The position numbers were made by a program, and so were the translations under genes. From the NCBI GenBank assembly GCA_003990765.1, contig RBNJ01000188.1:1-37600 (forward strand): a DNA stretch of 37,600 bases, given 5' to 3'. Of the stretch, positions 1,307-37,600 are shown in pieces. This stretch comes from Jimgerdemannia flammicorona. Lineage: Eukaryota. The notes below the pieces were generated by a model, which was not told the origin of the DNA, made no database searches, and worked only from the letters and a program-made list of their open reading frames with translations. The number at the start of each line of letters is the position of its first letter. Position 1 is the first letter of the stretch.

Positions 1307-1349
<43 letters not shown>

Positions 1350-13113: not shown

Positions 13114-13120
<7 letters not shown>

Positions 13121-13669
13121 AAAAAAAGATTGATCACTATTATTAAAATTATTATTATGATTATAAATAATAATAATAATAATAAATTTTCTTTATAATA
13201 AATTGATTTCAAATATATATATATATATTAATCACAGCTTAATGTGTTACTTGATAGAAGACTTATCTTGATTCTTCCATATAGTAGTAGTTGTTGTAGT
13301 ATTTGTACACCATAATAGCGAAGAGCGGTAGGGCAGCAGTTTTTATTGATAACGCAAACAACGCGCTTTTACGCGTAATTGATGACATCGATACAAAGCC
13401 ACAAATGATGACGTAAAACATATATTGAGTTGATCAATGAGATATCCTGAATAACCCAACTGATAAGAGGAAATGCAGATAACATCAAGAAATATAAAGC
13501 CTTGTATCCAGAGGCTTTTGCAGTCTGAAAAGTCACGTGTGAGGAATAGAATGGCGTTGTACTGGGAGAATGTGCTAAAAAGGTCAAGAGATTACGTAAA
13601 AGTTGCTAAACCCTAATAAGGAGCATTTGCCGAGTGCATTGTTCAAATTTTGGGCTTTGTCATTTAATC

Positions 13670-14120
13670 GTTTCCAGTCGTAGAGCTTCAATCATCGAGG
13701 TCGCCTGCTCTATCAACGTCGCGGAAGCCAGATAAATATATCCTACTCCCACTTAAATCGTTTCCGTTGCCATCAGTGCCGCCTAAGGTGAGCGTATGCC
13801 GTCCCTTTAATATACCTGAAAATCCGTTTAACGGCAGTCCGATGCGAATTGTTGTAGCACAATGAATACTGCGCCGCTTGTTGACAGCAAAAGAAATATC
13901 TGGTCGCGTCTAGCATGAGATACATAAGGCTTCCGATTGCCTGTAAGGGAGATTTGTTGTAGAGGTCGTTACGGAGGTTGCTTTTCTTAGCTAGACGTAT
14001 CCGCCAGCGTAGCTGAAGGGTTGCAATCCATCATATTGAATCATTTGAGTATAGCTTGAATATATCGCAGCTGCGAAATATCCCAACAGCAGTTTTGTAG
14101 GTAGAGTTCTATTTCAATTT
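13670..14120 (-). mobile_element. Ty1/copia pol remnant A (RT C-terminus to start of RNase H), frameshifted, CpG-retaining
   Basis: Minus strand reads ISQLRYIQAILK*FNMMDCNPSAT...QAIGSLMYLML/TRPDISFAVNK...HRTAVKRIFRYIKGT...LSGFRDVDRAGDLDD*SSTTG, matching copia GSLMYL..TRPDI..AV, AVKRI.RYLKGT and GY.DADWAGD.DDR.STTG. Confidence 0.88.
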
Positions 14121-14419
14121 TTGTTCAATTTGTCCTGGCAGCTAAGTCTCTTAATACTTTCTAATCTTGGTAGCAAGAGTATATAGATTTCTTACAATTG
14201 TGAGTTTTTTTATATATGTAAGTGAGAGATTTCTTTATATTATATAGATTAGATAACTACTAACTATATATATTTACTAAATTTGGAAATCAGATTCAGA
14301 TATTATAATTAAATATCTCTCTCCTAATTCTTATTCTTAATTTAGATCAACTATTACAATAGATAGATTCTATCTAGTATAGAAGATTAATTTAGACTAA
14401 TATATAGATAGTCAGTAGA

Positions 14420-14680
14420 TGTTATATCTTAGTTGAAAATATGGAGTGAAGAGAAGAGGGACTTTGTTTATTATTCCAGATAGCATGTATTTATATATTG
14501 AGTGAATAGTTCAAAGATAATATAGTTACATATATATAAACTATATTATCAAGATATCAAAATAATAGGAATTTCAATACAAGATAATATGCAAGAAAGA
14601 ATACAATATAAGTAGAAATATAATATAATGTAATCAAGCAATAACCACAAAATGACTGTAAATATACTAAAAGAATACTA
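14420..14680 (-). repeat. Possible degenerate 3' LTR of copia remnant B
   Basis: Lies downstream of the copia RNase H end; on minus a purine-rich GAGTAGATAG precedes it, it contains TATATAAATA and ends ...ATAACA at 14420. No partner LTR found. Confidence 0.3.
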
Positions 14681-14846
14681 TCTACTCATATTTAAAATAT
14701 AAGAAACTATAGTAAAAATAAAGAATATAAATAGATCCCAATGATAGAAAATTTTCAAATATAGAAGAAAAAGAAGAAGAACCAGTAAATAATCATAATG
14801 CAATATAATACTTGAAGAGAGAGATATAGAAAGATATATATATTGC

Positions 14847-14879
<33 letters not shown>

Positions 14880-14916
14880 TTATTACTGATATATAGTTTC
14901 ATTACTAATATATAGT

Positions 14917-15296
14917 TAGTACTCTCAATAAATTGAATTAAATCAAATTTGATCCAAATTCAATAAATCAAAGGTCTAATTCAATTTGAGATTTAATTCA
15001 AACTCTATTTTTTGAAATATAATAACTCAACAAAAATATGTCCAAATTTAATGATCTTTAGCTTATTAGATTCCTCTATATAAAAGGAATATAATAAGTA
15101 AAAGATCATTAAATTTGGACATATTTTCATCAAGTTATTATATTTCAAAAAATAGGGTTCAAATTAGACCCTTAATTTAATCTAAATTTAATTCAATTCA
15201 AACTTTATTTGAATTGAAAAATCTCCAATTCAATTTGATTCAAATAACTCTCAATTTAATTTGATTTAAATTGATTTGATTTGTTTGAAAGCACTA
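14917..15296. mobile_element. hAT-type non-autonomous element (MITE), 380 bp
   Basis: Perfect 8-bp flanking duplication TATATAGT (14909-14916 and 15297-15304); degenerate TIRs TAGTACTCTCAA / TTGAAAGCACTA; subterminal TTCAA/TTGAA/AATC short repeats; central ~150-bp hairpin. An 8-bp TSD is characteristic of hAT. Confidence 0.78.
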
Positions 15297-15304
15297 TATA
15301 TAGT

Positions 15305-15413
15305 TTACCATAAGACTTATTTATTTAGTATATTATTAAAATTTAAATTCTAGAAGAGCTTTGATAAGTGAATCTATAATAATATACTCTATAGAGATAT
15401 ATTCTAAGTATAT
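15305..15413 (-). mobile_element. Ty1/copia remnant B, 3' part (end of RNase H), separated from its 5' part by the gypsy-type insertion
   Basis: YLEYISIEYIIIDSLIKALLEFKF corresponds to copia I.LEYIPT..M.AD.LTKAL...KF with transitions; continues the frame broken at ~21780. Confidence 0.75.
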
Positions 15414-16904
15414 TGTAAGAGGGTTACTTATTAGAGTAACTATTACATAGTTCTGGAAGAGTTTTCTGGAAGTTCTGGATATTCTAAAAGACTGTTTTCC
15501 TAAGGTTAAGATCAATTTCATATAGAGTATATCCTCTATGCTTATTGATTTTAAGATTGGATTGACATCTCAACTAAAGTTCTTTTTTGGACTAGTTCTA
15601 GATGTTTAGGATTTTCTATATTTCAGAAAGTTCAAGAAACTAAGACCAGCTTAGTTGAATTGGTGTATTGCTGCAGACAATACCCAATTAGAAAATTTCA
15701 TAATGAGATTAGGAGTGAGACCTAATGGGGAGCAGATTTACTTAAGAGTGGTTTGTGGGTTATTAAATAGATTTATTCACTATTCATGATATTGCTATAT
15801 TAGAAGTAGTTGTGTGAAGGGATATTATAGGGAAGTATTCAGAAATGTTCTTGTATGTTCAAGTCTGAGATTTTGAGATCTGGGGAAGGGGGTATTTATA
15901 CTAGTAAGGGGCTATCTAGACTATGCTAGATATAGATATAGCACTTAGTACCTTACTGAGTTGGAATATAGTCATATAGTATAAATATGATCTGACATGT
16001 CAAGAGATTATCTGACTGCTGAGTCAGTTTACAGTTATGTTGTATAAGGCTAATCTAACTATACTATGACTGCTAAGCTATTTATAGGTTTAGATGCTGT
16101 CTGGGTAGTCTTCAATGATATCACTATTGATGATATCATCTCTGGCAAAGTCTGAGTAGTTTTCTGACTTCTGACATTATTAGTTTCTAAGGTATCATCA
16201 CTTCTATCTCTTACAAGATTAAGACTGTCCTTGGTAGTAGTGATTGTATAAGAATAACAGGTCTTGGTTCTCTTTTTTTTTGGACTTCTGATATATTTGC
16301 AAGGACTCATCATTCTTGTCTAGAGCAAGGGCTCCCAATGTCATGGCTGGGGGTTCAAACCTCTCAGAAATGATATTTTTTATAATTCAAGGCAATTTTT
16401 AGTAGTAATATCTGTTATATGGATAGCTTGAGATTAGTTTCAACAATGTCAGCTTTCTTGAGTTTAGATGAAGTATCTGTCACTCTCTAATGGAGGTGAT
16501 ACAGATAGAGTGAACAGAGTTGTTCAAATGTGTTTTACTTCTGCTAAGTAATGAAGTCTTGTATAGTTGTGGTATATTTTGGTCTTGAGTTGATAAGTAT
16601 AGTTCATGAACCTTTGATAGATGAGATAGAGTTCTTCTTGTCTTAGTTTGAGTTTGGTACTTTCAGTTTCCTTTTATAATAGTACAGTATACCAAACTAG
16701 TTATAGAGATTCAGAGTCAGTCTTATGGTTATAGTACTTCTTCTGGTATTCTTGTATCTTAGTGGTAGGTTCTCATGCTTGCTGGTATATTTTGTATAAC
16801 CAGATGATCTCTTCAGTAACTTGTTTTATAGTCTTGCATGTGGTTTTCAAATTGGTTCTGAGGATGACATGCAATTTTAGTGACTTGGAGGTTGTGCACT
16901 TATA
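15414..16904 (-). repeat. 3' LTR (1491 bp)
   Basis: Colinear with 20285-21774; minus-strand TATAAATA at 15893-15900 and AATAAA at 15772-15777. Confidence 0.93.
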
Positions 16905-16918
16905 ACTTCCCCCTTCTT
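16905..16918 (-). other. Polypurine tract
   Basis: Minus strand AAGAAGGGGGAAGT directly abuts the 3' LTR. Confidence 0.85.
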
Positions 16919-16989
16919 AGCTTTCAATATTCTTGTTGGGGCCTTTTAATTTAATCTAGTGTTGTTGTACTATTTGGATGATTCTTGTG

Positions 16990-17075
16990 GCTGTATTTGT
17001 TGAGGATTTGTTCAACTTTATATTCCTCTTGGTCATTAATAATAATAGGTGCAGGTGGTTCTGTAGTTTGGTTCA
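16990..17075 (-). pseudogene. N-terminal part of an integrase-associated chromodomain
   Basis: TEPPAPIIINDQEEYKVEQILNK matches the chromovirus pattern PPPP..IDGEEEYEVE.IL.; the YLVKW core is not seen. Confidence 0.7.
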
Positions 17076-17299
17076 GAAATGTGTCTTGGACTTTCTAGAG
17101 TAAGGGTCTAACATGACTGTTGACTTTGGAAAAGTCTTCTTCAGAGTTGTCAGTTTCTCCTTTGAATGGGCAGATGGAGATAGCAAAGAGAGGACATTTC
17201 TTGGCCAATTTCTTAAGCTGTAGCTTATTGATATGGGTGATCTTTGGTCTAGGGTCACTAGTGCTGAGTGGGTCCTTTTCACCTTATAGTTTAAAGTTA

Positions 17300-17645
17300 T
17301 GGCATCCTTTCTTGATGGTCAGAGAATAGTTTATCCAATTGATCATGAGGTTCTCTTGTTTCAACCATGGGTTTCCAAGGATGATTTTATTGTCAGAAAG
17401 TAGTATGATCTGGAGGGTAATATGTACTCGATAGTTACCAATTCAAATGGGTAGATTGCAGACTTCCTTGCTAATGACATGGGAGGTTCCATCAGCTGTG
17501 GCAACAGCTTGAGTTTGTTGGACTAGAGAGGTGAAGACCTTGAGTCTGTTGACTGTTTCTTCATTAATAAAGTTGCCTGAGGCACCACTATCTATCATAA
17601 TCTTAATAGGTGCTTGGTTGACAAAAGCTTGAAGTATAAGCAGTT
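17300..17645 (-). pseudogene. Retropepsin-type aspartic protease domain
   Basis: IKIMIDSGASGNFINEETV...ATADGT...IILGNPWLKQENLMINW (D-S-G catalytic motif and ILG.PWL). Confidence 0.9.
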
Positions 17646-17862
17646 TGTCTGATTCAATAGTAATGATTTTAGTTATAAGAGCTTTCCTTCTGTTGGTTCT
17701 TCTTTAAGCTAGTTTATTAATACAAGAGAAGCAATAATTGATCATTTGGGAAGAGTACATTCTAATACCATGGGGGTATTGGCCACTTGGTATATATCTG
17801 TCTTCGATTTTCTTATAGAATTATTCTTCTTTATTTATGATAGGTTGGGCTGGGGCCTTGTT

Positions 17863-18275
17863 TGATGAGCCAAATCCTTTGGATCCTCAGATGGTGAGTA
17901 GTAGTTCAGGGACTTCCTTGACTATCAGAGTTGACTCGATTTTCTCAAATAGGATCTGGGCAATATAGAAACCAGTGGAGATTTTGAAGAGTATCCAACT
18001 ATGGTTTTGGATAAGGACAATAATTTTGCCTGTATAATCTTTGTCAATGACTCCTCCTTCTACTGAGAGTCCTTTCAATACTAGACTGCTGTAACAGCAT
18101 ATTCTTCTAACATGTCCTTCAGGGATTTGGATGCTGATTCCTGTATAGACTTGCTTGACTTTTCAGTTGGAGACTATAGCTTCTTCAGCTGCATACAGGT
18201 CATATCTAGCTGCTTTTTGACTTCCTTTCATTGGGGTCTTAGCAGTTTGTCTTAACTTGATAAAGTCCAGTATTC
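17863..18275 (-). pseudogene. Trimeric-type dUTPase domain within the retroelement polyprotein
   Basis: All five dUTPase motifs in order: AARYDLY (I), YSSL from RSSL (II), GGVIDKDYTG (III), IAQIL (IV), *GSKGFGSS (V); departures from consensus are explicable by transitions. Confidence 0.92.
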
Positions 18276-18339
18276 TGGTAATCAGGTTATTGAGGTAGTA
18301 CAAAGTAGTAATAGTTGCTCATATTGCTGTTCGGGGTTT

Positions 18340-20270
18340 TCAGTTGGGGCAGGCACTGGCTATGTGTCCTGTTTTTTGTAATAGAAGTATACTCTACTTC
18401 TTCAAAGTTCATTTCTTTTTCCTTTAGTGAGTTTTTTAAAGATACTCAGCTGAGTGGGTTCATGATTTCTAGGTGTCCATGAGGTGGATGTTAAGAGAGC
18501 TTGGGATACTTCATACTTGGGTTCTTCTTTCTTGGTCTAAGTCTTTTCCTTGTTATTGAATTGTCTTTAGGGCAGAATTGGTCTAGCTGTTAGAATTCAC
18601 TTGACCATAGTCTTTATTCTTATCAGATACTATTATTAGTGATTATAACTAACTGAGCATCCTTGTTCTCGGATTTTTCTTATAAGTTATTCAGATAGTA
18701 TATCAAATAAATGATCTGCTCTTGTACCATTTCATGCTTCATTATTGGCAATATATCCTAGGCCAATAGTGTTCAGGAGTGACTTGAGTTTTGTACAGAA
18801 GGTTTCAAATTCTTCTTTGTTATATATATTAAATTTGAGATTGTAGAGTTTTACTCATTCAGCAATTATGGTTTTGCTGTGGTATTGAGCAATCATGAGT
18901 TGTTTTAGTCCAGGAGCTGCAGGATGAGCTCTATATCCTGGGGCATTGTTTGCTGCATTCTGAGCAACTACTATAGGTCAGATATCCCATGTGAGGGGTT
19001 TTTCAGGAAGGGTTTGTCACTATTCTTTAGCAGGTCCTTGGAAGAATGTAACAACTCAGCAGACATAGGCTGTAGTTATAGCAAAGAGTTGTTCCAGAGT
19101 ATGGTCTTGATTGTTTATCAAAAGGCAGTTAGCAACTCACTCATTAGTCTATTGATTGGCTTCAAAGTTGGTATCAACTACACTAATGAAGCTTTGGACT
19201 TCTTGTACAATACCATTGAAGATAGGTAGGCTCAGATTTTTGGTAGGTCAGATTTGTTTAGCTAGGGCAGTAATGGTTGCTGCCATTATGGCTACCTGGG
19301 CTATAAGATCTAGAATCTGTTGGTTTGCCATGTTGTTTACTGGAGACAGTTGGACTACAGGTAGTGGTATTATTGATACTACTTGAGGTACTAGTGAGGG
19401 TGTCCTTTGAGTCTATGTAAGTTGCTAGAGTAGTAGTTGTGGGTCTGGAGTGAGGGCTCAATAGATAGTTGTCTATTGCTGTATAGGTGTATTCTGTCCT
19501 GATAGAGGTACATCTCCTTTGGTGGTATATCCAGGATCAAATTTACTGAGATACTCCTCCTCCTCTTCAGTTTGGTCCCTGTGTAATTGAGTTTGCTCAA
19601 TATCAAAGTAAACAGAATCAGTTGTATATCTGATTTTGGATGGACTTAATTCAAAGTCAAGTTCTGGTTTGATATTGGTTTCGGGTTCAGATAGAGTTGT
19701 AGCAGAGTCTGCTTCAGATTCAGGGTCAGGTTGTTGACAAAGAGTTTCTCTTACTTCTTCTTTAAGAATATGGTAGGCCTTGCTATTCTGGAATTGGTAG
19801 TATAATACAGTCTTAGTCCTGGTATGGTGAAAGTCAGTAGAGTTGAGCCACTTGGCTACAGAGGCTTGGGCTTCATGAGAAACTAAGGCTAGAAATACTG
19901 CTGCTGATTGTCCTAGATCACTCAGATTTGTGGAGCTGATAAAACTCTTATTGAGAAGAGTAAAGAAGGCTTCTATAAGACCTTCTTCATCTTGACTTAC
20001 AAGGTGTAGAGTAAGGAGTTCAGTAAATAGAGTTTTGCCTATCTGCTGATTTAATCAGAGTACTTCTTTCTTTGAATGAAGTTTGTCCCACTTATTGCAG
20101 GTGTGGAGATCAAATTGTCCTTATATATCAGATTCAATTCTCTCCAGATTGTCAGATGGTTCAGAATAAATTTCAGTTCAGAGGTTAGGCTTTATACCAA
20201 CTTGTAGAAATTCTCAAAGGAGTTTGTAGTAGGATGAGAAAGCATCTTGAAGCAGAATTGGATTGTAAGT
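18340..20270 (-). pseudogene. gag with long N-terminal extension and C-terminal CCHC zinc knuckle
   Basis: Frame with transition-type stops containing LPIFNG..EVQSFI, FQGPAKE**QTL (G.A..WW), and YFYYKK/GHIASACP (CxxCx4Hx4C with TGC>TAC changes and a 1-nt slip) at ~18346-18392. Confidence 0.8.
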
Positions 20271-20284
20271 CACTGCTATCAAGT
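20271..20284 (-). other. Putative primer-binding site (initiator tRNA-Met-like)
   Basis: Three nt after the 5' LTR the minus strand reads TGATAGCAGTG, one G>A from TGGTAGCAG, which is complementary to the 3' end of many eukaryotic initiator tRNA-Met. Confidence 0.5.
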
Positions 20285-21774
20285 TGTAAGAGGGTTACTT
20301 ATTAGGATAACCATTATGTAGTTCTGGAAGAATTTTCTGGAAGTTCTGGATATTCTGGAAGACTATTTTCTTAAGATTAAGATCAATTTTATATGGAGTA
20401 TATCCTCTATACTTATTGATTTTAAGATTGAGTTGATATCTCAACCAAAGTCCTTTTTCAGACTAGTTCTAGATGTTTAGGATTTTTCATATTTCGGAAA
20501 GTTTAAGAAACTAAGACCAGCTTAGTTGAATTGGTGTATTATTGCAGACAATACCCAATTAGGAAATTTCATAATAGGGTTAGGAGTGGGATCTAATAGA
20601 GAGTGGATTTACTCAAAAGTGGTTTGTGGGTTATTAAATAGGTTTATTCACTATTTATAATATTACTATACTAGGAGTAGTTATATGAAGAGATATTGTG
20701 GGAAAGTATTTAGGAATGTTCTTATGTATTCAAGTCTGAGATTCTGAGGTCTGGAGAGGGGGTATTTATACTAGTAAGGGGCTATCTGAACTATACTAGA
20801 TATGGATGTAGTACTTAGTACCTTGCTGAGTTGGAATGCAGTCATATAGTATAAGTGTGATCTGACATATCAAGAGATCATCTGACTGCTGAGTCAGTTC
20901 ACAGTTATGTCATATAAGGCTAATCTAACTATACTATGACTGTTAAGCTATTTATAGGTTTAGACACTGTCTAGATAGTCTTTGATGATATTACCATTAA
21001 TAACATTATCTCTAACAAAGTGTAAGCAGTTTTCTGACTTCTGATATCATCAGTTTCTAAGGTATCGTCACTTCTATCTCTTATAAGATTAAGACTGTTC
21101 TTGGTAGTAGTGGTTATATAAGGATAATAGGTCTTGGTTCTCTTTTTTTTTGGACTTCTGGTATATTTATAAGGACTGGCCATTCTTGTCTAGGGTGAGA
21201 GCTTCCAATGTTGTGGCTGGGGGTTTGAACCTTTTGGAAATAATATTTTCTGTAATCCAAGGCAATTTCTAGTAGTAATATCTATCATATACATGGCTTG
21301 AGATTGGTTTCAATGATGTTGGCTTTCTTGAGTTCAGATGAAACATCTGTCACTCTCTAATAGAGGTGATACAGATAGAGTAAACAGAGTTATTCAAATA
21401 CATTTTACTTCTATTAAGTAATGAGATCTTGTATAGTTGTAGTGTATTTTGGTCTTGAGTTGATAAGTGCAGTTCATAAACCTTTAATAGATGAGATAGG
21501 GTTCTTTTTGTCTCAGTTTGAGTTTGGTACTTTTGGGTTTCTTTTGTAATAGTATAGTATACCAAACTAGTTATAGAGATTCAGAGTTGGTCTTATGGTT
21601 ATAGTACTTCTTCTGGTATTCTTGTGTCTTGGTGGTAGGTTCTCATACTTGCTGGCATATTTTGTGTAACCAGATGATCTCTTTGATAACTTGTTTTGTA
21701 GTCTTGTATATGGTTTCTAAATTGGTTCTGAGAATGATATGCAATTTTGGTAGCTTGGAGATTATATACTTATA
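20285..21774 (-). repeat. 5' LTR (1490 bp)
   Basis: Colinear with 15414-16904; minus-strand TATAAATA at 20763-20770 and AATAAA at 20643-20648. Confidence 0.93.
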
Positions 21775-21779
21775 TGTAT

Positions 21780-22770
21780 ATATAGTTCTATTCTCTATAT
21801 ACTTTCTTATATAATAATATTATACATCAATGTGTTTAGTTTTATTATAATAAATAGAGTTCTTTGTCATAGTAATCATAAATTAATTATTCTGATAAAG
21901 TACTATTTCTAATTAATCTAAGTTTCTTTAATAACTAATATAGTTAAATAATTTTCTTTATTACTATAGATAATACTTGATACTATACTTATATAGATGA
22001 TATATATTATTACTGAACTCTATTTATATATATATTTACTATAAAACAACTCTTTTATTATTTAATTAGAAGAAGTATACTCAGTCATAGATTAGTGATT
22101 ATTTAAGTCTCTGGTCTAATTAGCATTATATATACTGAATAGTTATATGTCATTCTTATTATTGTTACTATTACTCCTGTTCAATTTACTAAGAGTAAGT
22201 ATATAATATACTATTTCTTTGATATATCTAAAAATCTACTTAATAGTACTTTAATATATATAAATTATCATAGTATAATGAGTATTATGCTATCTTATTT
22301 ATAGTATATAAAATATTAGACATTATTTCTAATATAAGATATATGAGAGAACTAACTACTTATTGATAGAAAATATTAGTATAGTTTTTCTCTAGCATAG
22401 TATCAGACTTCTTTAACTTTATTAAAATTTCTATAAGAGTATTTACTGGCTTATATTTGCTTATATTAAATTGTTTGAGAATAGTATAGATATAAGTTAA
22501 CTGTAAGAGATATATGATATATATGTTCTTATTATATATAAGAGATATTCTCAAAAGAAAAGATATATCACCTATGTTAATTATCTTGAATTCTTTATAT
22601 AGAGCTTCTTTAACTCTATTAAACTTACTTTTTATCATAACAATAATGATATCATTCTATCTATATACTGTGATACATATAATATAAAATAGAAATAAGA
22701 ATTAGGGAAATAGATATTTGATCACAGTATTTGAATCTAATTTTTAAATATATTATAGTCTTATAAATAG
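21780..22770 (-). mobile_element. Ty1/copia remnant B, 5' part (RT to RNase H), extremely AT-enriched
   Basis: ITVYID (YVDD region), FNRVKEALYKEFKIINIGDISFLLRI...LLQLTYIYTILKQFNISKYKPVNT, and KTKHIDV*YYYIRKYIEN (copia TKHID..YH.IRE). Confidence 0.85.
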
Positions 22771-22780
22771 CAGTCATATT

Positions 22781-22865
22781 TTTACAAATATAGAAACTTT
22801 ACAAATATAGAAATTTTACAGATATAGAATCTTTATGATTATAGAGATTTTACAGATGTAAAGGA
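22781..22865 (+). repeat. Five degenerate 17-bp tandem units (TTTACARATATAGAAWY)
   Basis: Units start at 22781, 22798, 22815, 22832 and 22849, at the junction of copia B and LINE copy 1. Confidence 0.75.
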
Positions 22866-22869
22866 TCTG

Positions 22870-25800
22870 AACACCTTTCTCTGCTATAATTCACATTATA
22901 CAAACTTCTAATAATATTTTTAATATAGTTTTTTGAAGTAAAGATGATCATAATATAGCAACCAATGAGATATTAGAGAAGTATACTGGGCAGAATAGCT
23001 TTAGTACATTTAACTAGCAGTATGTAGGAGGAGTCATGACTTGGAGGAGAGTATGAGAAGCTTACTGGCTAGAGAATATAGATGAGAATAAGATAGTACT
23101 GAGAAGTAGAGAACTAGAAGAGTAAGCTTTCCTGATAAGATCAAGATTAGGCACTTATTTATGGATCTGGAGACCTAGCTACAGGGTGATAAAGAGAAGA
23201 AGAGGAATACAGAGTCTGGTAGAGAGGCTCATGAGAGTAGTAGTGATAGAGCTGAAGAAGTTGTAGCTAGAGAAAGTGAGACTACTGATGGAGGAGAGAC
23301 TACTAATTTAGAAAAAAAATCCAGATGTGACAGCTAATGACAGAGCTGGGCAGAGGTAGGGCATGAGGCCTAGAGATCTGACTGATAGTATAATAGACCT
23401 GATAGTAGTACTGTTACTCAAGAAATCAGTATCTAAATTCACTATTACATTATATTTTCAGAGTCTAGTAATTATGACAAGAATGGTTCTGAGGCTGCTG
23501 ACTTAGAATATAAAAGAGGCTACTTTAGTGAAGTTCTTGAAGAGTCTGGAGAGAGTTAAGATGGGGTTTGAGGAGAAAGAGTTGATGCTAGAGGTATTGA
23601 AGAAAGGTGTAGTAGTAGAAGAGGTAGTAATCTCTATAGCTTAGTACTTATGCTGGAACTCTAGAATGGTACAGTTGGTAGTAGCAAATGTACCAACAGT
23701 GAAGAAGGAGGTGGTTAGAGAGCTGATTGTTGATGTTATCAAGGAGTATAATGATGTAGTAGATGTGGGCTTCTGGGTCTAGAAGGGTACAGAGTTCAGG
23801 ACTAGTGATATAGATATCAGGGTGAGGCCAGCAGATAAGGAGAATACTGAAAAGGAGAGAGATTGACCAGTAGTGCTCAAGTAGAGACTAGTAGAGTATA
23901 AGATCTCAAGGATCAAGAGGATATCAGAGGAGGAGGAGAACTTGCTGGAGGTATTAGAGAACTTGACTGAGGCTGTTAAGAAGAGAAGACTAGTATAAAA
24001 GAAGTATGAGGCCAAGAGAGTGATAGAGATAGTGAATGGTAAGTAAGTAAGATTGGACTGAGCTGCCTAGAAAAGAGTACAGAGATAGCAGTATCAGAAG
24101 AATTTACTAGTAAAGTTGAGAGAGCAGCCAGAGAGAGAGAAGACTGCTGATAGAGTCAGATCAAGAGCCAGTACTTGGGCAGAGAAAGAGGAGATAGTGG
24201 TAAAGGGGATCTGAGCAGAAGGGGGGGACCTGGGGCAGGGGGTGGTGGTTGAGAATGAGGTAATAGTAGAGGTGATACAAGTTCATTATGAGGTATCTAT
24301 AGTAGATAAGGAGAATGATGAGCTATAGGATATACTGGAAGAGAACTAAGATAAGTCAGAGAGAGTGGATGCTGATAGTGGTCAAGAGGCTGAAGGGCAG
24401 AAAGTCAGCCAAGGAGTAGATGAGACTCTAGAAGAGAAGAAGTAGCTATAGATGGTATTGATGAATGTTGTGATAGATGAGTTAGGTAAGGTAGATTTTA
24501 GAGTAATTAGCAAGCACCACTGGAGTGAGATACTGTGGAAAGAGAAAGTGGTTCAGAAGCTTCATAATAAACTACTGGCAGATCTGTTGGAGGCAGAGAA
24601 GTATGAGATAGATGATGCCAGAGAGATAGAGTTCCTAACTATTACAAATAAGCAGGTAGTATATCTGTGGAAATCTAGGAAGGAGTTGGAGAAGTGGTAA
24701 GTAGTGTGTAAGAACTATTGATCTGATATAAAGGTAGTGGATGAAGTAGACTGTCAGGAGATCTTGAAAGTACTAAATGTATAGCAGAGAAAGGCAGATA
24801 AGCTTGAGACAGAGTAAAATTTGGATGTTGCTAGTAATATAGTAAGTATGGAATTATAGAATAAGTACTTATATACTCTCTAAACATTATTCAATATAAA
24901 TAGTACAACTAGAATCTTCTCTTTGAATATCAATGGTCTGAGAGATATGATAAGATATCAAAATATGTATCTTCAGCTGATTGAAGGGACTGGATGCAGA
25001 TCTGTTTTTATTACAGAATATAGGATATAATACTGGCTTAGATATACAAGATTGGACAAGAGAATGGAGAGGTGAAGTGGTATAACAGAATCAGGTAGGC
25101 ATTTTGATTAGGAAGGATAAGAGGAATATTAGAGATATTGAACATTGGGGGGACAGAGTGGTGTGGAGAGTATGGAGGAGGCCTGGCTAGAGCCTCTTGA
25201 CTGTTAGGTCATATTATTGCTCAGTAGAAAGAGAGAAGTATGTGGAGTAGATAAGGAGACCAAGAGATGCCCATATTATGGTAGATAAGAGGATTGACTG
25301 TCTGGGGGGTGACTTTAACATGATATACAATAGACTGCTGAACAGAATGGATGAGAGAAGGGAGATGATGAGCAGGAGTAGAGAGATAGAGAACTGAGAG
25401 AAGATTGAGAGACTGAGCTCACTAGTAGATATAGGGTGACTTGGGTAAGGAGATCATCAGGTCTACACTCATTAGATAGTAGGGCTGAGATTGAAAATTG
25501 ACTGGGTCTTGACTGCTGAGTGCTGGAGAGCAGATGTCTGGAGTTTGATTGAGATAGTATAGTACCTATGGTCTGACCACTAAGGTTTGCTGAGCTGTGA
25601 AAGGTTTGGGAGAAGTGGGGAGGAGTCTGGACATTAGCACTTAAATTCTTTATTATTGAGGAATCATACCTTATGGAATGAATAAGTAGTACTAGGATTA
25701 TTTGCTGGAGATATACTGAGATAAGATAGGGAGAGGGAGGGGAGTCCAAAGGAAGAGTCATATATAGTAGACCTTGTAGAGATTGGAAGAGCTACTGGAG

Positions 25801-28800: not shown

Positions 28801-29782
28801 AGTACTGGAGGGGAGTAGAAAGATATGCTATAGAGAATTCTGATGGAGAGTAGTTGATAGTACTCATTGAATTGAACTCAGATAGCAGAGTAATGAGGGA
28901 GAGGAAGATTGGAGACTCCAGATATAGAGGTGAGACTGTCTACTGCTAAGGAATATACTGGTGGATAAATTTCATTTAGAGAATAGTATGGAATATCTTT
29001 AGGAGCATGGGAGAGATATGTAGCCTGAGATCTGATAGAGAGTTGGAATTGGTGAAGAGTGAGACTGAAACAGTATTTGGCCTTGGAGTAAGCAAGTAGT
29101 GAGGTGGCTTCCCCTTAAGTTCTAGGAAGTATAGTAGAAGCTATTATGATATAATATGATACTGAATTACTGATCAGATCATTTAATAAAAGGGAGGGTT
29201 TTAGAGTATATAGAGTGTCTTAATATCAGGTAGGAGGGTAATATAGTACAGACCTCTGAGCATTGGCTGGGAGAGTTTAAGATTCTAGAAGACTTTTGGA
29301 GAGTAATTGAGGATTAGCTAGAGGTATAACCTCTTAGGAGGTTGGAGTGGAATAATTTTCAGAGGAGGCTGATGAGAGAAGTTAGAGATGAGTGGTTGAC
29401 CTTTGGGTGGGCTCTGGCTATTTAGATTGGGCTTACTAGATATTGACTATATATATTTGAGAGTAGTCAGTATATAGTGCTTGGAGTATAAGTTATAAGA
29501 TAGGAGTGATTATTGGTAGACATTCTGAATAGTTAGTAGCAGGAGTAGGGACCTAGAGGAATCCATAGGAGGCTTGTGGAATATATTTACAGAAAGAGTC
29601 AGGAGAGGGTTGGAATGGCTGGGGGATTGGTAATCTTCCAGAGAGATAGAGAGGAGAAGGGAGAGAGAGTTCTATGAGGGGTTCTATATGAGATTAGGTG
29701 AAGGGTACCTTCATATCTTTATATTAATTTAATATAGAATAAATAGTAATAAAGTGGGAGTCTAAGTAACTATAAAACAAAA
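22870..29782 (+). mobile_element. L1-clade non-LTR retrotransposon, copy 1 (ORF1 ~23.0-24.8 kb; ORF2 from ~24896: APE endonuclease + RT), heavily mutated, interrupted by an antisense insert
   Basis: ORF2 begins INSTTRIFSLNINGL (SLNVNGL); RT motifs WRPIILLNIDYKL, QWGFIGG, FLDQEKTYDRI, QEDPLLLILY, FADN; 3' AATAAA followed by an A-rich tail; colinear with copy 2. The 5' boundary is approximate. Confidence 0.88.
27281..28475 (-). mobile_element. ~1.2-kb poly(A)-tailed retroposed insert (probably a 5'-truncated LINE of another family), antisense within LINE copy 1
   Basis: T23 tract at 27280-27302 with AATAAA just upstream on minus; 12-bp TSD TATATTAACTGT (27269-27280) / TATATTGACTGT (28476-28487); host ORF2 resumes after it and aligns with uninterrupted copy 2 near 36320. 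Confidence 0.8.
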
Positions 29783-29809
29783 TATATATATATATATATA
29801 TAAGATCTA

Positions 29810-30590
29810 CACTTATAGAAAATGACTCACAGAAAATAGTCATAACTTAGCTATCTTATAGCTAGTAAACTTATATAAATATTTCTAGTATCTAGAGTGA
29901 ATAAACTTTAGATTAAAATAGTTCAAAGCAAAGAGAAAGCAAGAGAACTAATAAGTCTATGAGTAAATATACTTCAAACTCATCTACTCCTATATCTCAA
30001 GGACTCTATAGAGTTAAAGAAGATTAAATTTTCAAGATACAGAAATCTGACATACTTATCCAGTTATGTATCCACTATATTATAATATCTATAAATATCA
30101 CTCCATTAGTATAGTATTGAATATATATATAGTTATCTGCTTTATAGTATATACAGTTATCATTAAGGAGATATTTATTAATTTTCTATTTTATAAACAG
30201 GTTGCTTACTTGATGCTATATAATAGTTCTTTATATAATTTATATATTCAATCATTCTAGTCATATTCTTGTAGCTGATAAATATAGCTCTATATATATC
30301 TAATAGATTTCTAAGTTATATATAGTACTGATTAAAAGAAGTATTCTGAGCAAAGTAAGTTTAAATATCAGTAAAAATATCACATTATAGTCTATACTAT
30401 AATCCTGTGAATAACTCTTAGCAATTAAATGAGTTTTATACTATTCTATATTTCTATCACTTTTGTACTTAATTTTATAAATATAATATAATTCTATAGT
30501 TTATCAATTAATCAGAAAGAGTATTAGACAGATCACATACATCTCTCTCTAGTAACATTTAGATTATACAACCTTTGAGCAGTACTTATA
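29810..30590 (-). mobile_element. Ty1/copia remnant C (N-terminal half of RT), extremely AT-enriched
   Basis: YKIKYKSDRNIE*YKTHLIAKSYSQDYSIDYNVIF...KLTLLRILL matches copia YK.K...DG.IERYKARLVAKGY.Q..GIDY.ETF; LYSIK*A matches LYGLKQA. Confidence 0.85.
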
Positions 30591-30599
30591 ATATCATTT

Positions 30600-33500
30600 T
30601 TAGAGAAAAGAGACTAGTAACATAGTGACCAACAGGCTTTCCAAAGTATATACTAGGCAGGGTGGCCCTAGTATATTTGACTGATAGCATATAGAGAGGG
30701 GCCCTGGCTTGAGGGAAAGTATGAGAGGTCTGCTGGCAGGAGGATGTAGAAGAGGAGAGAGTAGAGTTGGTGAACAGAAGACAGAGAGGACAAGCTTTGC
30801 AGATATAGTGAAGAGAGGACAGCTGGCACTAGAACTGAAGGGCTGGCTGAGGAGAGGCAAAGAGATAGCAAAGACTATAGAGTATAGGGGAGCAGTCCTT
30901 AGCAGTGGGAGTAGTAGAGCTGGGGATATAGGGGCTGGAGTGAGTATGATGACTGATGACAATAAGACTGCTAATTTGGAAAAAAAATCCAGATGTGACT
31001 GCTGATGGCAGAGCTGAGAGGATGGAACTTGGATAGATAGAGGATCTGGTAGAAGTGTAATGAGCCTGGTAGTGGCCCCATTACTCAAGAAATCAATCTC
31101 AGAGTTTGCAGTTACTTTATACTTCCAGGGCTTAGTAGTGATAGTGAAAATGATGCTGGGGCTGATTGCTAAGCAGATGGCTGAAGCAGTATCTGTGAAG
31201 TTCCTGAAGAGACTGAAAGGAGTGGAGGTGGGCTTTGAGGAGGCTGGACTATTAGAGAAGATACTGAAGGCTGGGCTGACTGTTAGGAAGGTATATATTC
31301 CAATGGTGTGCTGCTTAAGATAGAATCCCAGAGTGGTACAGCTATTGATAAAAGGGGTGCCCATGGTGACTGCTATGGAGATGAAGAGAAGAGTTGAGAA
31401 AGTCAAGGTTGAGTATAAGAAGGTAGTTGATATTGGATTTTGGGTCTAGGAGGGGACCTTATTCTGAACTGAAGATATTGATATTAGGATTTGGTTAGCA
31501 GGGAAGAAAGCTACTAGAAAGGCTAGAGACTGGCCTTTAGTAATAGTTTGGGGGGCTTTTTTATGTAAGATGACAAAGGTGAAAGTGAGGAGAAGAAAGA
31601 GAATTTATTAGAGACACTAGAGGAGCTGAGTAGTATAGTAGAGTGGAGGGCAAAAACTTGAAAGATATATATAAAGTTGATACATTTGGAGATGGTGGAT
31701 AAGAAGAGAATATATATAGATAAGAGACTGTGGGAAAAGTCCCAAGGATGTAAGAGGTAGAGAGAGCTGCTAGCAAACCTAGAGAGTAGAAAGAAAAAGA
31801 ATACTAATGGAATTGAAGTCATAGAGAGAGCCAAAGTGAGTGTCTGGGCTGGTAAAGATGGCAGAAATATAGAGAAGGGGTCAGAAGTAGACAAGGAGGT
31901 GACTGGTAATGACCCATATACAGATAGTATATTTGAGGTCTGAGAAGACTCTCCATCTTCTGCTCCTCTTATTAGATGAGGTCCAGCTTCAAGGGGTAGG
32001 GTGGCAGAGGATGTACCTATGCAGAGGAGGTCTAGCAAGTATACTTTGGAGTTCCTGAGGTAGCAAAGGGGGGGCAGATGGTGGTAGCTGGTATAGATGA
32101 ACTAGTGGATGTCTAAGAGGAGGAGTGGAATGAGACTGTGAGCATAGGGGCTGATACCATAATACTGGATAGAGGAAGGCCAGCAACTCCAGAGAGGAAG
32201 GAGGTAGGAAACCTACTATAGATGTGTAGAATAATGAACAACTTTGCAGCAGAGGAGTTGGGAGAGGTGGACCTGTGAGTAATGAGTGAAGTGTATTGAG
32301 CATGAATCCTATATGGTGATGGAGTAGTGAAGGCACTGAAGGTAGAGGTTTTTGCAGTTTTTCTAGAGGAGAAAGAGTATGAGGTTAATAAAGAGAGAAA
32401 GGCCAAGCTGGTGGTTGCTACTGGGGAGTGAGCTGCCTTCTGTTGGGTAAAGTATTATGGGTTGTAGCTCTGGCAAGAGGCTTGCCTGGAGTATTGTGAG
32501 AATTTTGAGGAGAAGAAGGATGGGAGCTTGCAGAACTACTAGTTGGATTAGAGACTTAGAGGATTGAAGAGGAGACAGTGACTGATGAACACAATCTGGA
32601 CTTGGTGTAGGAGGAGATGAATATGGAGTAGTAGAGGATGTGCTTGCTATTTAACAATATTTCCTATGAATAGTACAACTAATATTTTTTCTTTAAATGT
32701 GAATGGATTATGGGGTTCTTTTTGATATCAGAATATTTTTGCTTGGCTGAAGGAATTAGAGACTGATCTCTTTCTTTTGCAGGATATCAGATGTAAGGAT
32801 AATTTGGATAAACTAGAATAGATAAAGGAATGGAGAGGTGAGACAGTTTGGATGGGCAAGATTGGGATTCTGGTCTGGAGAGACAGAGAGAAGGTATAAG
32901 ATGTGTGAAGCTAGGGAGATAGGCTGGTTTGGGGAGAGTGGATTTACACAGGCTGGGAGTCAGTTATAGTAGGATTCTGCTACTGCCCTACTGTGAGAGG
33001 TAAGTATGTAGATTGGGTGAAGGGTCTCTAGGAGGGAGGGGCTCTTGCAGAGACTGGAGTGGATATGCTTAGCAGAGACTTTTTAATATGATCAGAGATG
33101 TAATGATGGATAGAACTGACAGAGAGTGAGAGGTTGAGGGTAGGAGTAGAGGTCTGGTAGCTTGGGAGAAAGTAGAGAGGCTGAGTGCTTTGATAGATGC
33201 TAGCAGGGGGTTCTAGGGTGACAGAAGAGTATACATACACTGGACAAGTGGCCTGGGAACAAGAATTGACTGGATTTTGACAGCAGATTGCTGGGGCTTA
33301 GATGTTTAGAGGTCACTGGAGGCTGAATGGTGTCTGTGGTCTGATAATTGGGAATTGCTAAGATAGGGTCATTTTGGGAGGAGTGGGAATGGACTTGGAC
33401 ATTAGTACCTCAACTCCTCTTTGTTAGACAATAAGATATTATAGGATAGGTGGGCTGAGGACATTCAGCAGAGAGTGGAGGGGTGGATATAAGAGGGTGC

Positions 33501-36500
33501 TCTGGTTGAAGTTTGGTGGATAAGGTTGAAAGAGACTACTAGAGTCTATTGGGGGGAGACCAGTAAGGTAGCAGGTAGACAGAGGAGGAAGAGAATCCCC
33601 TTTTCTCCACTACCTTACCAGTCACAAGGTTTGGTAGGCAACCTTCCAAGTCTCCCTCCCCTATTATTATTCCCTCTACCTCAGATTGATTTGCTGTACC
33701 TACATGGGCATGGTAGGAGGAGGGCAATGGTGATGAGTTGCCCCTTTATCAGTGTCAGATCAGTGTCTTCTTCACTTTTTCATAGTTTCTGGTGTCTTTG
33801 GCTGTATCTGGAGTATATCTGTTTTGGTGTAGTGTCTTCTTCCTTTTGCCATTGCCAATAAGGTGCTGTCTTGATGTGTCTCAGACTACATAGGGAGTCG
33901 GCTGACCTTGGGTGTCAAGTGCTCAGTATAGGTTACCTGCAGGTCCTCGGTGTCTGTGGTGGGGCCCTCTGGCTTTGGCAAGCTTCCCAGTGAGCATGGT
34001 TCTGGTGTAGGTGACTGTTTTTTGGGTGATGTTGGAGATGGCTATCACAGATAGGAGGAAGGGCATTTACAGTAAACCAGTGGGGTGCCAGGCTGGGGGT
34101 GGTCATCAGGGCTGGGGTAGACAATATTTTGGTGGGGCCTTTTGATTAACTGGTGGGGGGTGGGGTGGTGCAGGGGCCAGCATTCTGGCTGTACCCAACT
34201 GGAACTAAGAGCTGACATGGTAATGTGATCAAGGCCCACAGGCTTGGGGAGTGGGACCTTCCTCATTTGGCAGTACCTGACTGGAACCAGGAGCTGACAC
34301 AGCAATATGATTGAGGCCTGCAGGCTTGGGGAGTGGGAGTGGGATCTCTTTAGGCCCTAGCCCATGTATAAGTCCTTTGAGGAAGGTGCTGTGTGTAAGT
34401 CCTTTACTCACCCACTTTGAATTTACTTTGCTCTCTGTTGGTTGGTTGGGGGGTTTTTTCTTTGCCTTGGGCTTTCTTTTGGGGTTCGGGGGGCTATTCT
34501 TTATTCAGTTCCAGCACTGCTAGATCCAACACATAGGTGTGCTCTCACATGTAAATGATGATCCAGCCCTGGTGAGCAGACAAGTCTAGTATATGTCATG
34601 GGGGTTGACATAGCTGGTGTTTGACAGGCATAGCTGGAGCAGTGGGACTGCTGGACAATTTAGTTGCCTAGGTTAATGGGGGGATATTGTTTGGTGGGTG
34701 GTGGGGGAGGGTTTTGGCCTATATAGTCTAGGTTCCCTTCTAATAAAAATCTGCAGGACTTTGAGTCCATTAAAAAAAAAAAAAAAAAAAAAGAGGAGGA
34801 AGAAGATGGTGTGGACTTCTACTAAACTAGTGAGACTTCTGAAGAATTGGGTAGATCTGTTGGCCCTGGAGGGGGTGGAGGATTGGAGATTGTTAAGGGT
34901 AAAAAAGGAGATTGTTGAGTTGTAACAGGTGCTGTGGGAGGAAGAGGAAGCATAGGTGCAGAGTTTAGTAGTGTGATTACATTGGCAGGAGCTGGAGAAA
35001 GGGGAGAGGTCCTCTAAGTTTCTCACAAGAGTCCTTCAGGCAAGGAGAGTTCAGCAGAGGTGGGAGGGGGTTCTTGATTCTGAGAGACTATTAGTATATA
35101 ATATACAAGACATTCTCAGATTATTAAAGAAGAGGTGGAGCAGTTTGTGGAGTGAGAAGAAGGGTGGGGCTGATGCTGCTGACATTGATCATACTTTTGA
35201 GGATTGGCACCCACCACAGGTGAAAGAGCTGGGTGGCCTGGTATTGCCAGTGCAGGAGGAGGAGATTTGCCAGATTCTTGCTATAACTATATTGGGTATG
35301 GTGCCAGGGGAGGACAGCCTGCTCTGGGATTTTTGAAAGAAGATAGTAGGTGTCTCTGGCATACTAAGAGAGCTGATGGTACTTTGTGACTTAGTACTAT
35401 AGTTCAGGAGATAGGTAGGTGAGTAGGATCTGAGACTAGTGGTACTGCTTTATAAGAACAAGAGCAGAAGAGAGGACTGGAAGAACTGGAGGCTGATCAT
35501 GCTACTAGATATGGACTGAAAGTTAGTCACTAAGGTAGTGGTAGCAAGGCTGCAGAAGGTGGCTCAATAGATCTTGGGGGAGGAGCAGTGGGGCTTTATA
35601 GGGGGCAGGCTCATTAGAGATAGCATGGCTTAGATATATGGCATTATTGAAGGAGTATGAGCCTGTAGACTAGATGAGTACCTGGTCTTTCTGGATCAGG
35701 AAAAGACATAAGACTGTATTTAGTAAGTCTGGATGACAAAGATACTAGATAGAATTGATATCTCTCAGCAGTTCTGAGTAGCAATAGTCAGCCTACTAGA
35801 AGGAAGTAGAGCTGTACTTATGTATAATAGGCATCATAAGGTAGCTTTCTCTCTGGGTAGAGGTGTTCCCCAGAGGGACCCACTGTCTCCCATTCTATAT
35901 ATACTCTCCTTAGAGTCTTTGGTGGATAGAATTCAGTAGAGGATAGTAGGGCTTTCAGTATTTGGTATTGGGTAGAAAGTTGGTACCTTTATGGATAATA
36001 TAGTGGTTAGTCTGAGTTTGGTCACTGATATTGAGAAATTCAAAGAGACTATAGAGTAGTATGAGGTACACTCTGGGGCTAAACTCAATTGGCACAAGTA
36101 TAAAACAATGGTATTGGATAATGGCCTGGTGGGGGGGAATATCATCAAAACAATTATTCCTACTAGGAAGGCAGTGAGGGACTTGGGTATTTATCTCTCA
36201 GTATATGGGTCAGTCCTACCAAGACTCTGGTGGGAGCAGAGGATTGTAATCTAGAGAGAGGCCCTGTAGAGTTAGAGAGACTACCACTTGTCACTAGTAG
36301 GGCATGTTTTCATTTTGAACATTTACTAGCTGTTGAAGTTGTAGTATTTGGCTTATCATCTGGACTTCTTAGCCTAGGTGGTAAAGAGATTATTGATACT
36401 GACCAAGAGATAGATCTGAGCTGAGAGAAGGAGTCAGATTAGCTGGAAAATCTTGTCTTTGCCAGTAACTAGAGGAGAACTCAGGCTGGTTGACTTTCTG

Positions 36501-37600
36501 AAGAAATTGTACTATCTGAGAGTATGGTGGCTAAAGAGAGCTATAGAGCTAAGAGGTAGTAGCTGGATTCCCCTGATGATGAAGGTCTGGGAGATAAGGT
36601 TCTTACTGAGAAGCTCTATAGAAGATTTACTGTTCTTGGTTGGGCTTCAGAACAATGAACACATGTAGTTTAAGAGCTTCTGATGAGGAGTTGCAGATGG
36701 GGTATACTGTATTGAGATTCATTAGCAGAGAGATAAAGGAGAGCTGCCTTGGGGCCCAGTAATATAGTGATGGGACTAAGTATTGCTGGGGGATATCCCC
36801 CTAGGTAACTTTAATATTAGTGATGGGATTGAGTACCAGAGGGGATTAGGGCAGGATCTGTGGCCCTGTAAATGATAGTTGATGAGTATTGAAGAAGAGT
36901 AAGACTGAAATGAGGTCTGGGTCTAGAGTGCTGAGATTAGATAGTAGCTACTACTGAAGTATTAGGTAGTCTAGTGGTATATATTGAGGAGGAATATTAT
37001 ACTCAACTTTTGCTTAGACTACTTTATAGAAGGGGGCAACTTTGACTTTAAGAAGTATTACAATGTTGGACAGAAAGGAAGTTTTGTACAGATGCTAAAA
37101 TATTGGCTAGGAGAGTACAAGATACTTAGTGACTTCTAGATAGTAGTTGGGAAATAATTAGGTATCATGCATAGGGGGGATGATGTGAAGGATTGGTGGG
37201 AGAATTTGTGGAATAGATTAATAGAGGGGGTTGGAAATGAGTGGATTACTTTAGATTGGGTACTGGCTGTATAGGTGGGGTTAGCAGAGCACTGGTTGTT
37301 TTTTTTTTCGAAGAAAAGAGATATCTGGGCTTGGAGGTATAGCTGCTGAGATGAGAAGGGTTGATGGAGGACACTCTGATGGGCTGGTGGTTCAGTTGGG
37401 GTCTGCAGAGTAGTTGGTAGTATTACTTGGTAGAGAAAATCTGTAGGCAGAGTGGAGAGTAGTAGATAATAGGGTGATTTTCAAGTGTGAAGGAGTAGAG
37501 AGGGGGAGTTCCCCTATAGAGATTGGGTAGTAGAAGGAGATAATATAATTATATCTTTAAAATAGTAATAAATGATAGAGTCTACATAACTATAAAAAAA
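30600..37600 (+). mobile_element. L1-clade non-LTR retrotransposon, copy 2 (ORF1 ~30.6-32.6 kb; ORF2 ATG at 32666), mutated, interrupted by a sense insert; poly(A) tail reaches the window end
   Basis: MNSTTNIFSLNVNGL...DLFLLQD (APE), GERSSKFL, WRLIMLLDMD*KLV, QWGFIGGRLIRD, FLDQEKT*D, RGVPQRDPLSPILY, FMDN; 3' end AATAAATGATAGAGTCTACATAACTATAAAAAAA resembles the end of copy 1. Confidence 0.9.
33593..34791 (+). mobile_element. ~1.2-kb poly(A)-tailed retroposed insert within LINE copy 2
   Basis: Perfect 12-bp TSD AGAGGAGGAAGA (33581-33592 and 34792-34803), AATAAA at 34742-34747, A20 tail at 34772-34791; internal duplication with 82-bp period (34191-34256, 34273-34338). Confidence 0.85.

Follow-up and report, generated by a model that had tools for sequence, protein, structure and literature searches.

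Repeat-induced point mutation, or RIP, counts as a trait of the Dikarya, chiefly of ascomycetes, and in the Pucciniomycotina the transposons of Microbotryum carry a CpG-centred hypermutation that follows the trinucleotide TpCpG. The literature, which here and below is cited from excerpts of the papers and their supplements, points the same way: PMC8647823 (2021) states, citing Venice 2020, that RIP signatures were undetected in Gigaspora margarita and in Mucoromycotina species, and in the excerpted parts of a 2025 PLoS Biology study of 1,239 genomes (PMC12543289), RIP-like signatures are confined to ascomycete classes, with 'Jimflamm ... no_rip' and 'EndFLAS ... no_rip' among the entries of a supplementary table. 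Here, we describe a stretch of 37,600 nucleotides, hereafter the window, from contig RBNJ01000188.1 of the Jimgerdemannia flammicorona assembly GCA_003990765.1. From position 14,075 to its end, the window is a nest of dead retroelements, made up of one dUTPase-bearing long terminal repeat (LTR) element, two copies resembling long interspersed nuclear elements (LINEs) and AT-rich remnants. What is new is a RIP-like hypermutation with the signature CpG ≥ CpA > CpC >> CpT, in a lineage for which the published screens are negative. A literature search for Jimgerdemannia together with RIP, methylation or DNA methyltransferases (DNMTs) gave nothing on topic, although an earlier mention is possible, and no application of RIPCAL or RIPper to Mucoromycota subphyla was among the matches listed. 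The original prediction, made from the letters of the stretch, had proposed such C:G-to-T:A mutation of the repeats in a lineage in which RIP was not established; the hypermutation is confirmed, and the latter point agrees with the excerpts of PMC8647823, PMC11105155 and PMC12543289. Our evidence base is this one window and the contigs matched to it, rather than the whole genome.

The clearest evidence comes from the two LTRs. As these are identical at integration, the differences between them arose in place, that is, after the element had inserted. In the self-BLAST alignment of 15413–16904 with 20284–21774 (1492 nt, 87.3% identity), the differences comprise 184 transitions and 4 transversions, together with a single indel. 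Under a transition-to-transversion ratio of 2:1, a binomial test gives p = 6e-27 for 184 transitions in 188 substitutions, and the excess is not a matter of CpG sites: 150 of the 184 transitions lie outside CpG, and this subset (150 of 154) gives p = 2e-21. A normal transversion load over the full LTR alignment had been named as the outcome that would tell against hypermutation, and the alignment does not have it. Over the first 127 nt, where the original prediction had counted 14 differences and no transversions, the differences are indeed all transitions, but there are 13 of them. Both strands were struck, the transitions comprising 70 C/T and 114 G/A differences, and so were both LTRs, with 86 and 98 changes. 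Aligned copy by copy, the window shows a mutation spectrum as extreme as that of RIP.

Which cytosines are hit depends strongly on the base that follows. When the LTR pair is scored with C or G assumed to be ancestral, 34 of 36 cytosines are mutated in CpG, 93 of 201 in CpA, 41 of 127 in CpC and 15 of 219 in CpT, and the last three are heterogeneous (chi-square 84, p = 5e-19). As the original prediction had noticed, the lost CpGs are resolved as TG in one LTR and as CA in the other, which holds for those 34 of the 36 C positions of reconstructed CpG; its reading of CTTATA at the ends of both LTRs is likewise correct on the + strand. Among trinucleotides, the mutated share is about 1.0 for CGN, 0.64 for CAT, 0.55 for CAC, 0.51 for CCT, 0.35 for CAA and CAG and 0.06–0.08 for CTN, a pattern that differs from a symmetric CHG rule, and the 5' neighbour has little effect (0.28–0.45 of cytosines mutated). 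Expressed per copy, the mutated fractions are about 0.30 for CpA, 0.19 for CpC and 0.04 for CpT, with CpG near saturation. The corresponding products of rate and time are at least 2.25 for CpG and 0.36 for CpA, and transversions come to 0.0013 per site per copy (95% confidence interval 0.0004–0.0034); relative to this per-site transversion load, C>T change is several hundred-fold or more in excess at CpG and about 270-fold at CpA. Relative to saturated CG, the CA:CC:CT mutation ratios are about 0.36:0.21:0.04. Cytosines outside CpG mutate at rates of roughly 1/6 to 1/60 of that seen in CpG. A process confined to CpG cannot produce the CpA differences, because once a CG has become TG or CA, its partner cytosine has left the CpG context.

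Two copies alone cannot separate C>T from T>C, and the direction of change therefore has to come from intact relatives. For each mismatching codon, we scored whether the relative's residue is restored by undoing or by applying C>T/G>A in the window. In LINE-like copy 2, undoing these changes restores the residue at 90 of 131 mismatches to the protein P0017, at 72 of 114 to P0018 and at 38 of 81 to P0019, and applying them explains only 5, 4 and 6, with 7–11 for two transversion controls. The LTR element behaves in the same way against its intact relative P0025, where undoing explains 50 of 60 mismatches, applying 3 and the controls 3–4; the 50 single changes now stand in the contexts TpG (16), TpA (22), TpC (10) and TpT (2), an order that matches that of the LTRs. 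The direction C>T rather than T>C is thus shown for two element classes. The broken reading frames fit this direction: the original prediction held that these were killed by stops derivable from C>T while remaining in register, and the stops do fall mostly at W, R or Q, with 432 and 326 codons aligning gap-free. Against P0017, 13 of 18 LINE stops are at W (10 TAG, 3 TGA), 3 at R and 1 each at K and C; against P0025, the dUTPase–protease part of the LTR element has 82% identity over 326 gapless residues and 5 stops, all at R (TGA, 2) or Q (TAA, 3). A relative of the LINE-like copies found in a metagenome, L001, is collinear with both: copy 1 aligns to it without gaps in tblastx and has 15 in-frame stops in 316 reverse transcriptase (RT) codons, and copy 2 is gapless over 432 codons, yet has 18 stops. 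Used as a DNA-level proxy, L001 agrees in direction, with 192 C>T and G>A changes against 82 T>C and A>G in one comparison and 169 against 53 in the other. It was not used as an ancestor for mutation context, its DNA identity being only 61% and the context table blurred by the divergence of the family.

The same process has marked the whole right-hand part of the window. Between 14075 and 37600 (23,526 bases), 12 CpG dinucleotides remain where 732 are expected from base composition (GpC, as a control, occurs 648 times), the exact count bearing out the original prediction's "about a dozen" by eye. The gene side is normal, also as predicted, with 804 CpG against 776 expected in 1–14074, and probable noncoding single-copy DNA keeps its CpG there too (observed/expected 1.05 in 6000–8400 and 1.19 in 10900–11900). 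The dense CpG run stops at 14074 and the edge 14074/14075 is sharp. Within the block, CpG loss is as strong in the spacers as in recognisable repeats, and the TpA/ApT ratio is 0.96–1.16 in all eight sub-segments, against 0.72 in the genes. The block consists of repeats and spacers throughout and the genes are spared, but a copia-like relic at 13.3–14.07 kb is spared as well; the claim that all repeat classes are mutated consequently stands for the LTR element, the two LINE-like copies and the AT-rich spacers within 14200–37600 and fails for this relic.

Other copies in the genome vary in the same manner. Contigs of two sequencing runs that bear the window's organism label (X1 and X2) were matched to positions 16905–36904 at a likeness of at least 80%, the results applying to the covered parts; 405 contigs were fitted in X1 and 309 in X2, and as most are less than 95% alike to the window, we consider them paralogous copies. 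In X1, the places that differ from the window are transitions in 351 cases and transversions in 29; in X2, the counts are 351 and 33. The differences run both ways: some places have A/T in the window and G/C in the other copies, others the opposite, which is the pattern that independent mutation of each copy would give.

The host does not belong to a group with ordinary RIP. The PTAR1-like open reading frame (ORF) at 4667–5527 on the minus strand is 97% identical to a protein named as Jimgerdemannia flammicorona at NCBI, the next named matches being Backusella (36%), Paraglomus (31%) and Dentiscutata (31%). On the evidence of this match the host is an Endogonales fungus of the Mucoromycotina (Mucoromycota) and not a member of the Pezizomycotina, so that the inferred Mucoromycota host holds and the Pezizomycotina origin that had been named as speaking against the prediction does not apply.

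Table 1. Features of the window, with coordinates, strand and main properties.
Feature	Position	Strand	Remarks
Gene-bearing control region	1..12700		F-box/LRR-like, POP4-like, PTAR1-like and kinase-like ORFs; CpG observed/expected 0.94–1.20 per 2 kb
Ty1/copia-like relic, CpG kept, at left edge of mutated block	13300..14074	-	CpG observed/expected 1.16; frameshifts and stops
CpG-free, C>T-hypermutated repeat block	14075..37600		Continues to window end; 12 CpG vs 732 expected
AT-rich spacer	14101..15412		GC 0.21, 0 CpG; holds inverted repeat 14979–15181
LTR, 3' in the element's orientation	15413..16904	-	TG...TA on + strand; 0 CpG; 86 of 184 polarised transitions
LTR retrotransposon, internal part	16905..20283	-	3.4 kb; dUTPase ~17863–18243, aspartic protease ~17308–17655
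LTR, 5' in the element's orientation	20284..21774	-	2 CpG left; 98 of 184 polarised transitions
AT-rich spacer	21775..22870		GC 0.19, 0 CpG
LINE-like copy 1	22871..28717 (ends approximate)	+	RT ~26097–27044; 0 CpG; collinear self-BLAST blocks with copy 2
AT-rich spacer	28801..30538		GC 0.31, 0 CpG
LINE-like copy 2	30539..37600	+	RT ~34866–36815; extends beyond window; Pfam RVT_1 3.9e-31; homologues P0017–P0019
Extra 1.27-kb piece in LINE-like copy 2	33600..34866	+	Jump of tblastx offset vs L001; not in L001

As to the origin of the pattern, we lean, by a modest degree, towards an active, RIP-like deamination that acts after integration and is linked to DNMTs or to heterochromatin. Retroelements would integrate, and cytosines on both strands would then be turned into thymine on a massive scale, the 3' neighbour setting the preference: essentially complete at CpG, about 30% per copy at CpA, about 19% at CpC and about 4% at CpT. 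The deamination would be driven by an enzyme and coupled to a cytosine methyltransferase or to the heterochromatin machinery, and would serve as a RIP-like genome defence. Dependence on the 3' neighbour is how DNMT-type enzymes behave. An active process is favoured by this neighbour rule together with the size of the C>T excess over transversions, the single indel in 188 substitutions and the near-immunity of CpT; one indel per 188 substitutions also argues that little time has elapsed. The data show the direction of change, the involvement of both strands, the context rule, the timing after integration, the sharp edge and the host lineage; we infer that an enzyme and not passive change was at work, that it was set off by repeats or heterochromatin, and which enzyme it was. 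A DIM-2/DNMT1-type pathway acting over the whole repeat domain, spacers included, would suit the data better than a strictly copy-limited RID pathway, because the spacers are equally affected and the edge is domain-like. In Neurospora, DIM-2 is reported to mediate RIP with DIM-5 and HP1 and to spread it into single-copy linkers (10.1101/115501), and a DIM-2 homologue is reported in Phycomyces, of the Mucoromycota (PMC13297926). Taken to its full extent, the idea that an Endogonales defence deaminates whole repeat or heterochromatin domains, leaving the CpG ≥ CpA > CpC >> CpT signature and probably using a DIM-2/DNMT1-class enzyme without RID, is a tentative one, to which we give somewhat less than even credence.

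Several observations weigh against an active defence, and some of them fit slow decay. If heterochromatic repeats were densely methylated at CG and to some degree at CA > CC > CT by a DNMT1/DIM-2-type enzyme, spontaneous deamination of 5-methylcytosine (5mC) under poor repair might yield a similar picture, with no mutator and no sensing of homology; we regard this as rather unlikely, albeit the main alternative. Complete CpG loss is equally a product of 5mC decay, and the loss extends over the domain, spacers included, with a sharp edge resembling a chromatin boundary. The copia-like relic beside the genes, which is a repeat and yet is spared right up to the edge of the block (CpG observed/expected 1.16), suits such a boundary. 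C>T changes lie intermingled with G>A changes, and runs tests (p = 0.06 and 0.80) revealed no strand-coherent tracts. With non-CpG rates that are about 1/6 to 1/60 of that at CpG, modest non-CG methylation could suffice, and CG methylation focused on transposable elements is reported in relatives, in Rhizophagus (PMC8647823) and, at a CG level of 2.2%, in Phycomyces (PMC7862722). The k-mer screen lists J. flammicorona and an Endogone species as 'no_rip' (PMC12543289, supplement file 12), in line with published screens finding no RIP in J. flammicorona, and in the repeat table of the same study, the classed repeats add up to some 73% of the assembly of 231 Mb; with repeats at such a share, any defence did not halt their expansion. 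The index (CpA+TpG)/(ApC+GpT) devised for Neurospora counts against an active defence as well, ranging from 0.77 to 1.28 over the repeat segments. The threshold of this index is about 1.03, and only three of the eight segments lie below it, so that the strong CpA preference of Neurospora is not seen: the order is CpG > CpA > CpC >> CpT, and the index is unlowered in five of eight segments. As the loss of CpG refills the CpA/TpG pool, the mutation here is not a CpA-only form of RIP. On the other side of the balance, passive decay would have to explain how 150 non-CpG transitions came with only 4 transversions and 1 indel, which demands C>T rates hundreds-fold above the transversion rate. In mammals, passive 5mC decay gives a CpG-to-transversion ratio of roughly 30–40, and the rates demanded far exceed such benchmarks; this rate argument in turn leans on only four transversions and on benchmarks from animals and plants. 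An excess limited to CpG, with a near-neutral spectrum elsewhere, is not what the 150 non-CpG transitions and 4 transversions describe, although it could hold if CA and CC were methylated. In the excerpt on Phycomyces, non-CG methylation is low, at 0.3% for CHG and 0.5% for CHH (PMC7862722), and a CpT nearly untouched beside heavily mutated CpA and CpC is no known passive pattern. The original prediction had hedged between a repeat-directed mutator and non-CpG methylation plus deamination; this hedged reading is supported, and the comparison of rates with mammalian and plant figures leans towards an active process.

A canonical RIP of the RID type, premeiotic, triggered by homology and limited to duplicated segments, with an RID/Masc1 orthologue kept in the Endogonales, appears improbable. 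The Endogonales have a sexual cycle, with zygospores borne in sporocarps, which would provide the setting, and the changes are of the right kind, being only C>T/G>A, present in both copies and rich in nonsense codons in otherwise preserved frames. The equal mutation of spacers and recognisable repeats does not suit a process limited to duplicated segments, and the order CpG ≥ CpA > CpC >> CpT departs from the strong CpA preference of Neurospora (10.1101/115501). The excerpts of PMC8298701 cut both ways: the arbuscular fungi, which are related, are reported to have RID, and the Mucoromycota clades sister to them are said, citing Bewick 2019, to have lost it, the latter speaking also against the active reading. 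Least probable of all, to the point of being barely worth entertaining, is that the changes are an artefact of cytosine damage in field DNA or of misassembly, or stem from APOBEC-like editing of retroelement cDNA before integration. The genome does derive from field-collected fruiting bodies (PMC10386755), but CpG is normal in the genes of this contig, the edge is sharp and like variation among copies recurs in the contigs of two separate runs. Both strands were struck (70 C/T and 114 G/A), the LTRs diverged after integration and spacers that are not retroelements are mutated too; APOBEC-type editing of a single cDNA strand is excluded by the changes on both strands and after integration and by the dependence on the 3' neighbour.

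The relic at the edge deserves a closer look, as a repeat in the window that escaped. It contains an ORF of 85 amino acids with HMMER relatives, and RVT_2 is present in all four relatives checked; a Pfam search of the relic itself gave no match. It shows no excess of C>T-type mismatches, although as a control it is weak, its closest homologues being only 30–47% identical: against P0028, undoing C>T/G>A explains 5 and applying it 3 of 75 mismatches, a comparison of low power. Immediately inside the block, the first AT-rich spacer holds a near-perfect hairpin (14979–15181) with 97-nt arms of 84% complementarity and a 9-nt loop, and the arms (14979/15085) are 12 transitions and 4 transversions apart. 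On the gene side, spacers at 13067–13229 and 1317–1381 contain palindromic tracts of (AT)n and A/T runs, and the tract 1317–1357 also matches 27262–27302.

In the LTR element, a polypurine tract sits directly inward of the 3' LTR junction on the element strand. Both LTRs read TG...TA on the + strand and end there in CTTATA, and the flanks, TATAT and TGTAT, are one transition apart and resemble a 5-bp target duplication. Pfam identifies a dUTPase (2.8e-23) and RVP_2 (9.2e-10), the dUTPase being placed between the upstream, gag-side part and the protease. This copy is without RT and integrase; in the intact relative P0025, the protease is followed by RVT_1. The LTR segment 20240–20906 has a contig depth of 1466 in X1 and 339 in X2, far above the rest of the element, and may be shared with a far more abundant repeat or represent many solo LTRs.

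The LINE-like copies differ from each other by 242 transitions and 155 transversions, an old split within the family that is uninformative on the process. Copy 1 is apparently interrupted after the RT, at about 27.1–28.5 kb, by some 1.2 kb of other sequence in which the GC skew is negative and which includes a T-run at 27271–27312. The extra 1.27-kb piece of copy 2 contains an 82-nt tandem duplication, whose copies at 34186 and 34268 are 12 transitions and 1 transversion apart, and carries 3 of the 12 surviving CpGs of the block. Its contig depth is 502/168 in X1 and 81/31 in X2, a Pfam search of it gave no match, and it is perhaps a short, abundant element in its own right. The sense strand of the LINE-like copies is G-rich and C-poor, with a GC skew of about +0.5 in the window. 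Strand-biased mutation was considered as the source and rejected: L001 is equally skewed (G 39.5%, C 14.1%; CpG observed/expected 0.44), and the excess of G over C is therefore a trait of the family.

The negative outcome of the earlier screen may be less of a contradiction than it seems. According to the excerpts of PMC12543289, that analysis used scaffolds above 50 kb and contrasted k-mer enrichment in repeats with that in all noncoding DNA, and because classed repeats make up most of the J. flammicorona genome, we infer that such a comparison is of low power when the genome is fragmented and consists mostly of repeats. For this species, the supplements of the study list a 4.0-fold enrichment of TATA in noncoding DNA and no repeat above 5 kb at 95–100% identity. 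If our interpretation is true, composition-only screens overlook the process in mostly-repeat genomes, and the window provides the first case outside the Dikarya in which alignments reveal mutagenesis of the RIP type, which would then be older than the split of Mucoromycota and Dikarya or have arisen twice. Were the pattern to hold genome-wide, it would place an origin, or a second origin, of mutational genome defence in early-diverging fungi and offer a natural system that pairs a very large repeat load with such a defence; whether DNMT1/DIM-2-type enzymes drive C>T change outside Neurospora would become a testable question.

Among described systems, the RIP of Neurospora crassa, mediated by RID, is the natural yardstick. 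The two hallmarks of RIP, only C:G>T:A transitions and changes on both copies and both strands, are found here, in 184 of the 188 LTR substitutions, with directions of 90 against 5 and 50 against 3, and in the 86 and 98 changes of the two LTRs and the 70 C/T and 114 G/A differences, respectively. The changes are likewise post-integration, they create stops without frameshifts and an AT-rich product, and the adjacent genes are untouched. The differences are the strong CpA preference there, against CpG ≥ CpA > CpC >> CpT here, and a host that lies outside the Dikarya; moreover, an excerpt of PMC8298701 reports RID as absent from Mucoromycotina. The DIM-2/DIM-5/HP1 pathway is closer in that it also mutates adjoining and linking single-copy DNA (10.1101/115501), which fits the whole-domain pattern of the window, and in that DIM-2-class enzymes are reported in Mucoromycota (PMC13297926); in Neurospora, nevertheless, the CpA preference of this pathway is reported as even stronger (10.1101/115501). 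The hypermutation of Pucciniomycotina shares with ours its centring on CpG and its occurrence as RIP-like C>T change of transposons outside the Ascomycota. Here, however, all CpG is lost whatever its 5' base, which leaves the TpCpG rule invisible, and 150 of the 184 LTR transitions are non-CpG. For Zoophthora radicans (Entomophthorales), a RIP-like composition has been claimed in another very repeat-rich genome outside the Dikarya (PMC11105155); as excerpted, that claim is index-based and comes with stated caveats, whereas in the window direction, context and the ratio of transitions to transversions derive from aligned copies. The phylum differs as well, Zoophthora belonging to the Zoopagomycota and the host of the window to the Mucoromycota. 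Finally, methylation-driven CpG decay in vertebrates and plants resembles the window in turning the CpG of transposons into TpG and CpA while unmethylated gene regions keep theirs, but differs from it in what happens elsewhere: here, non-CpG transitions outnumber transversions by 150 to 4, and CpG has come near to saturation within the span of 4 transversions and 1 indel.

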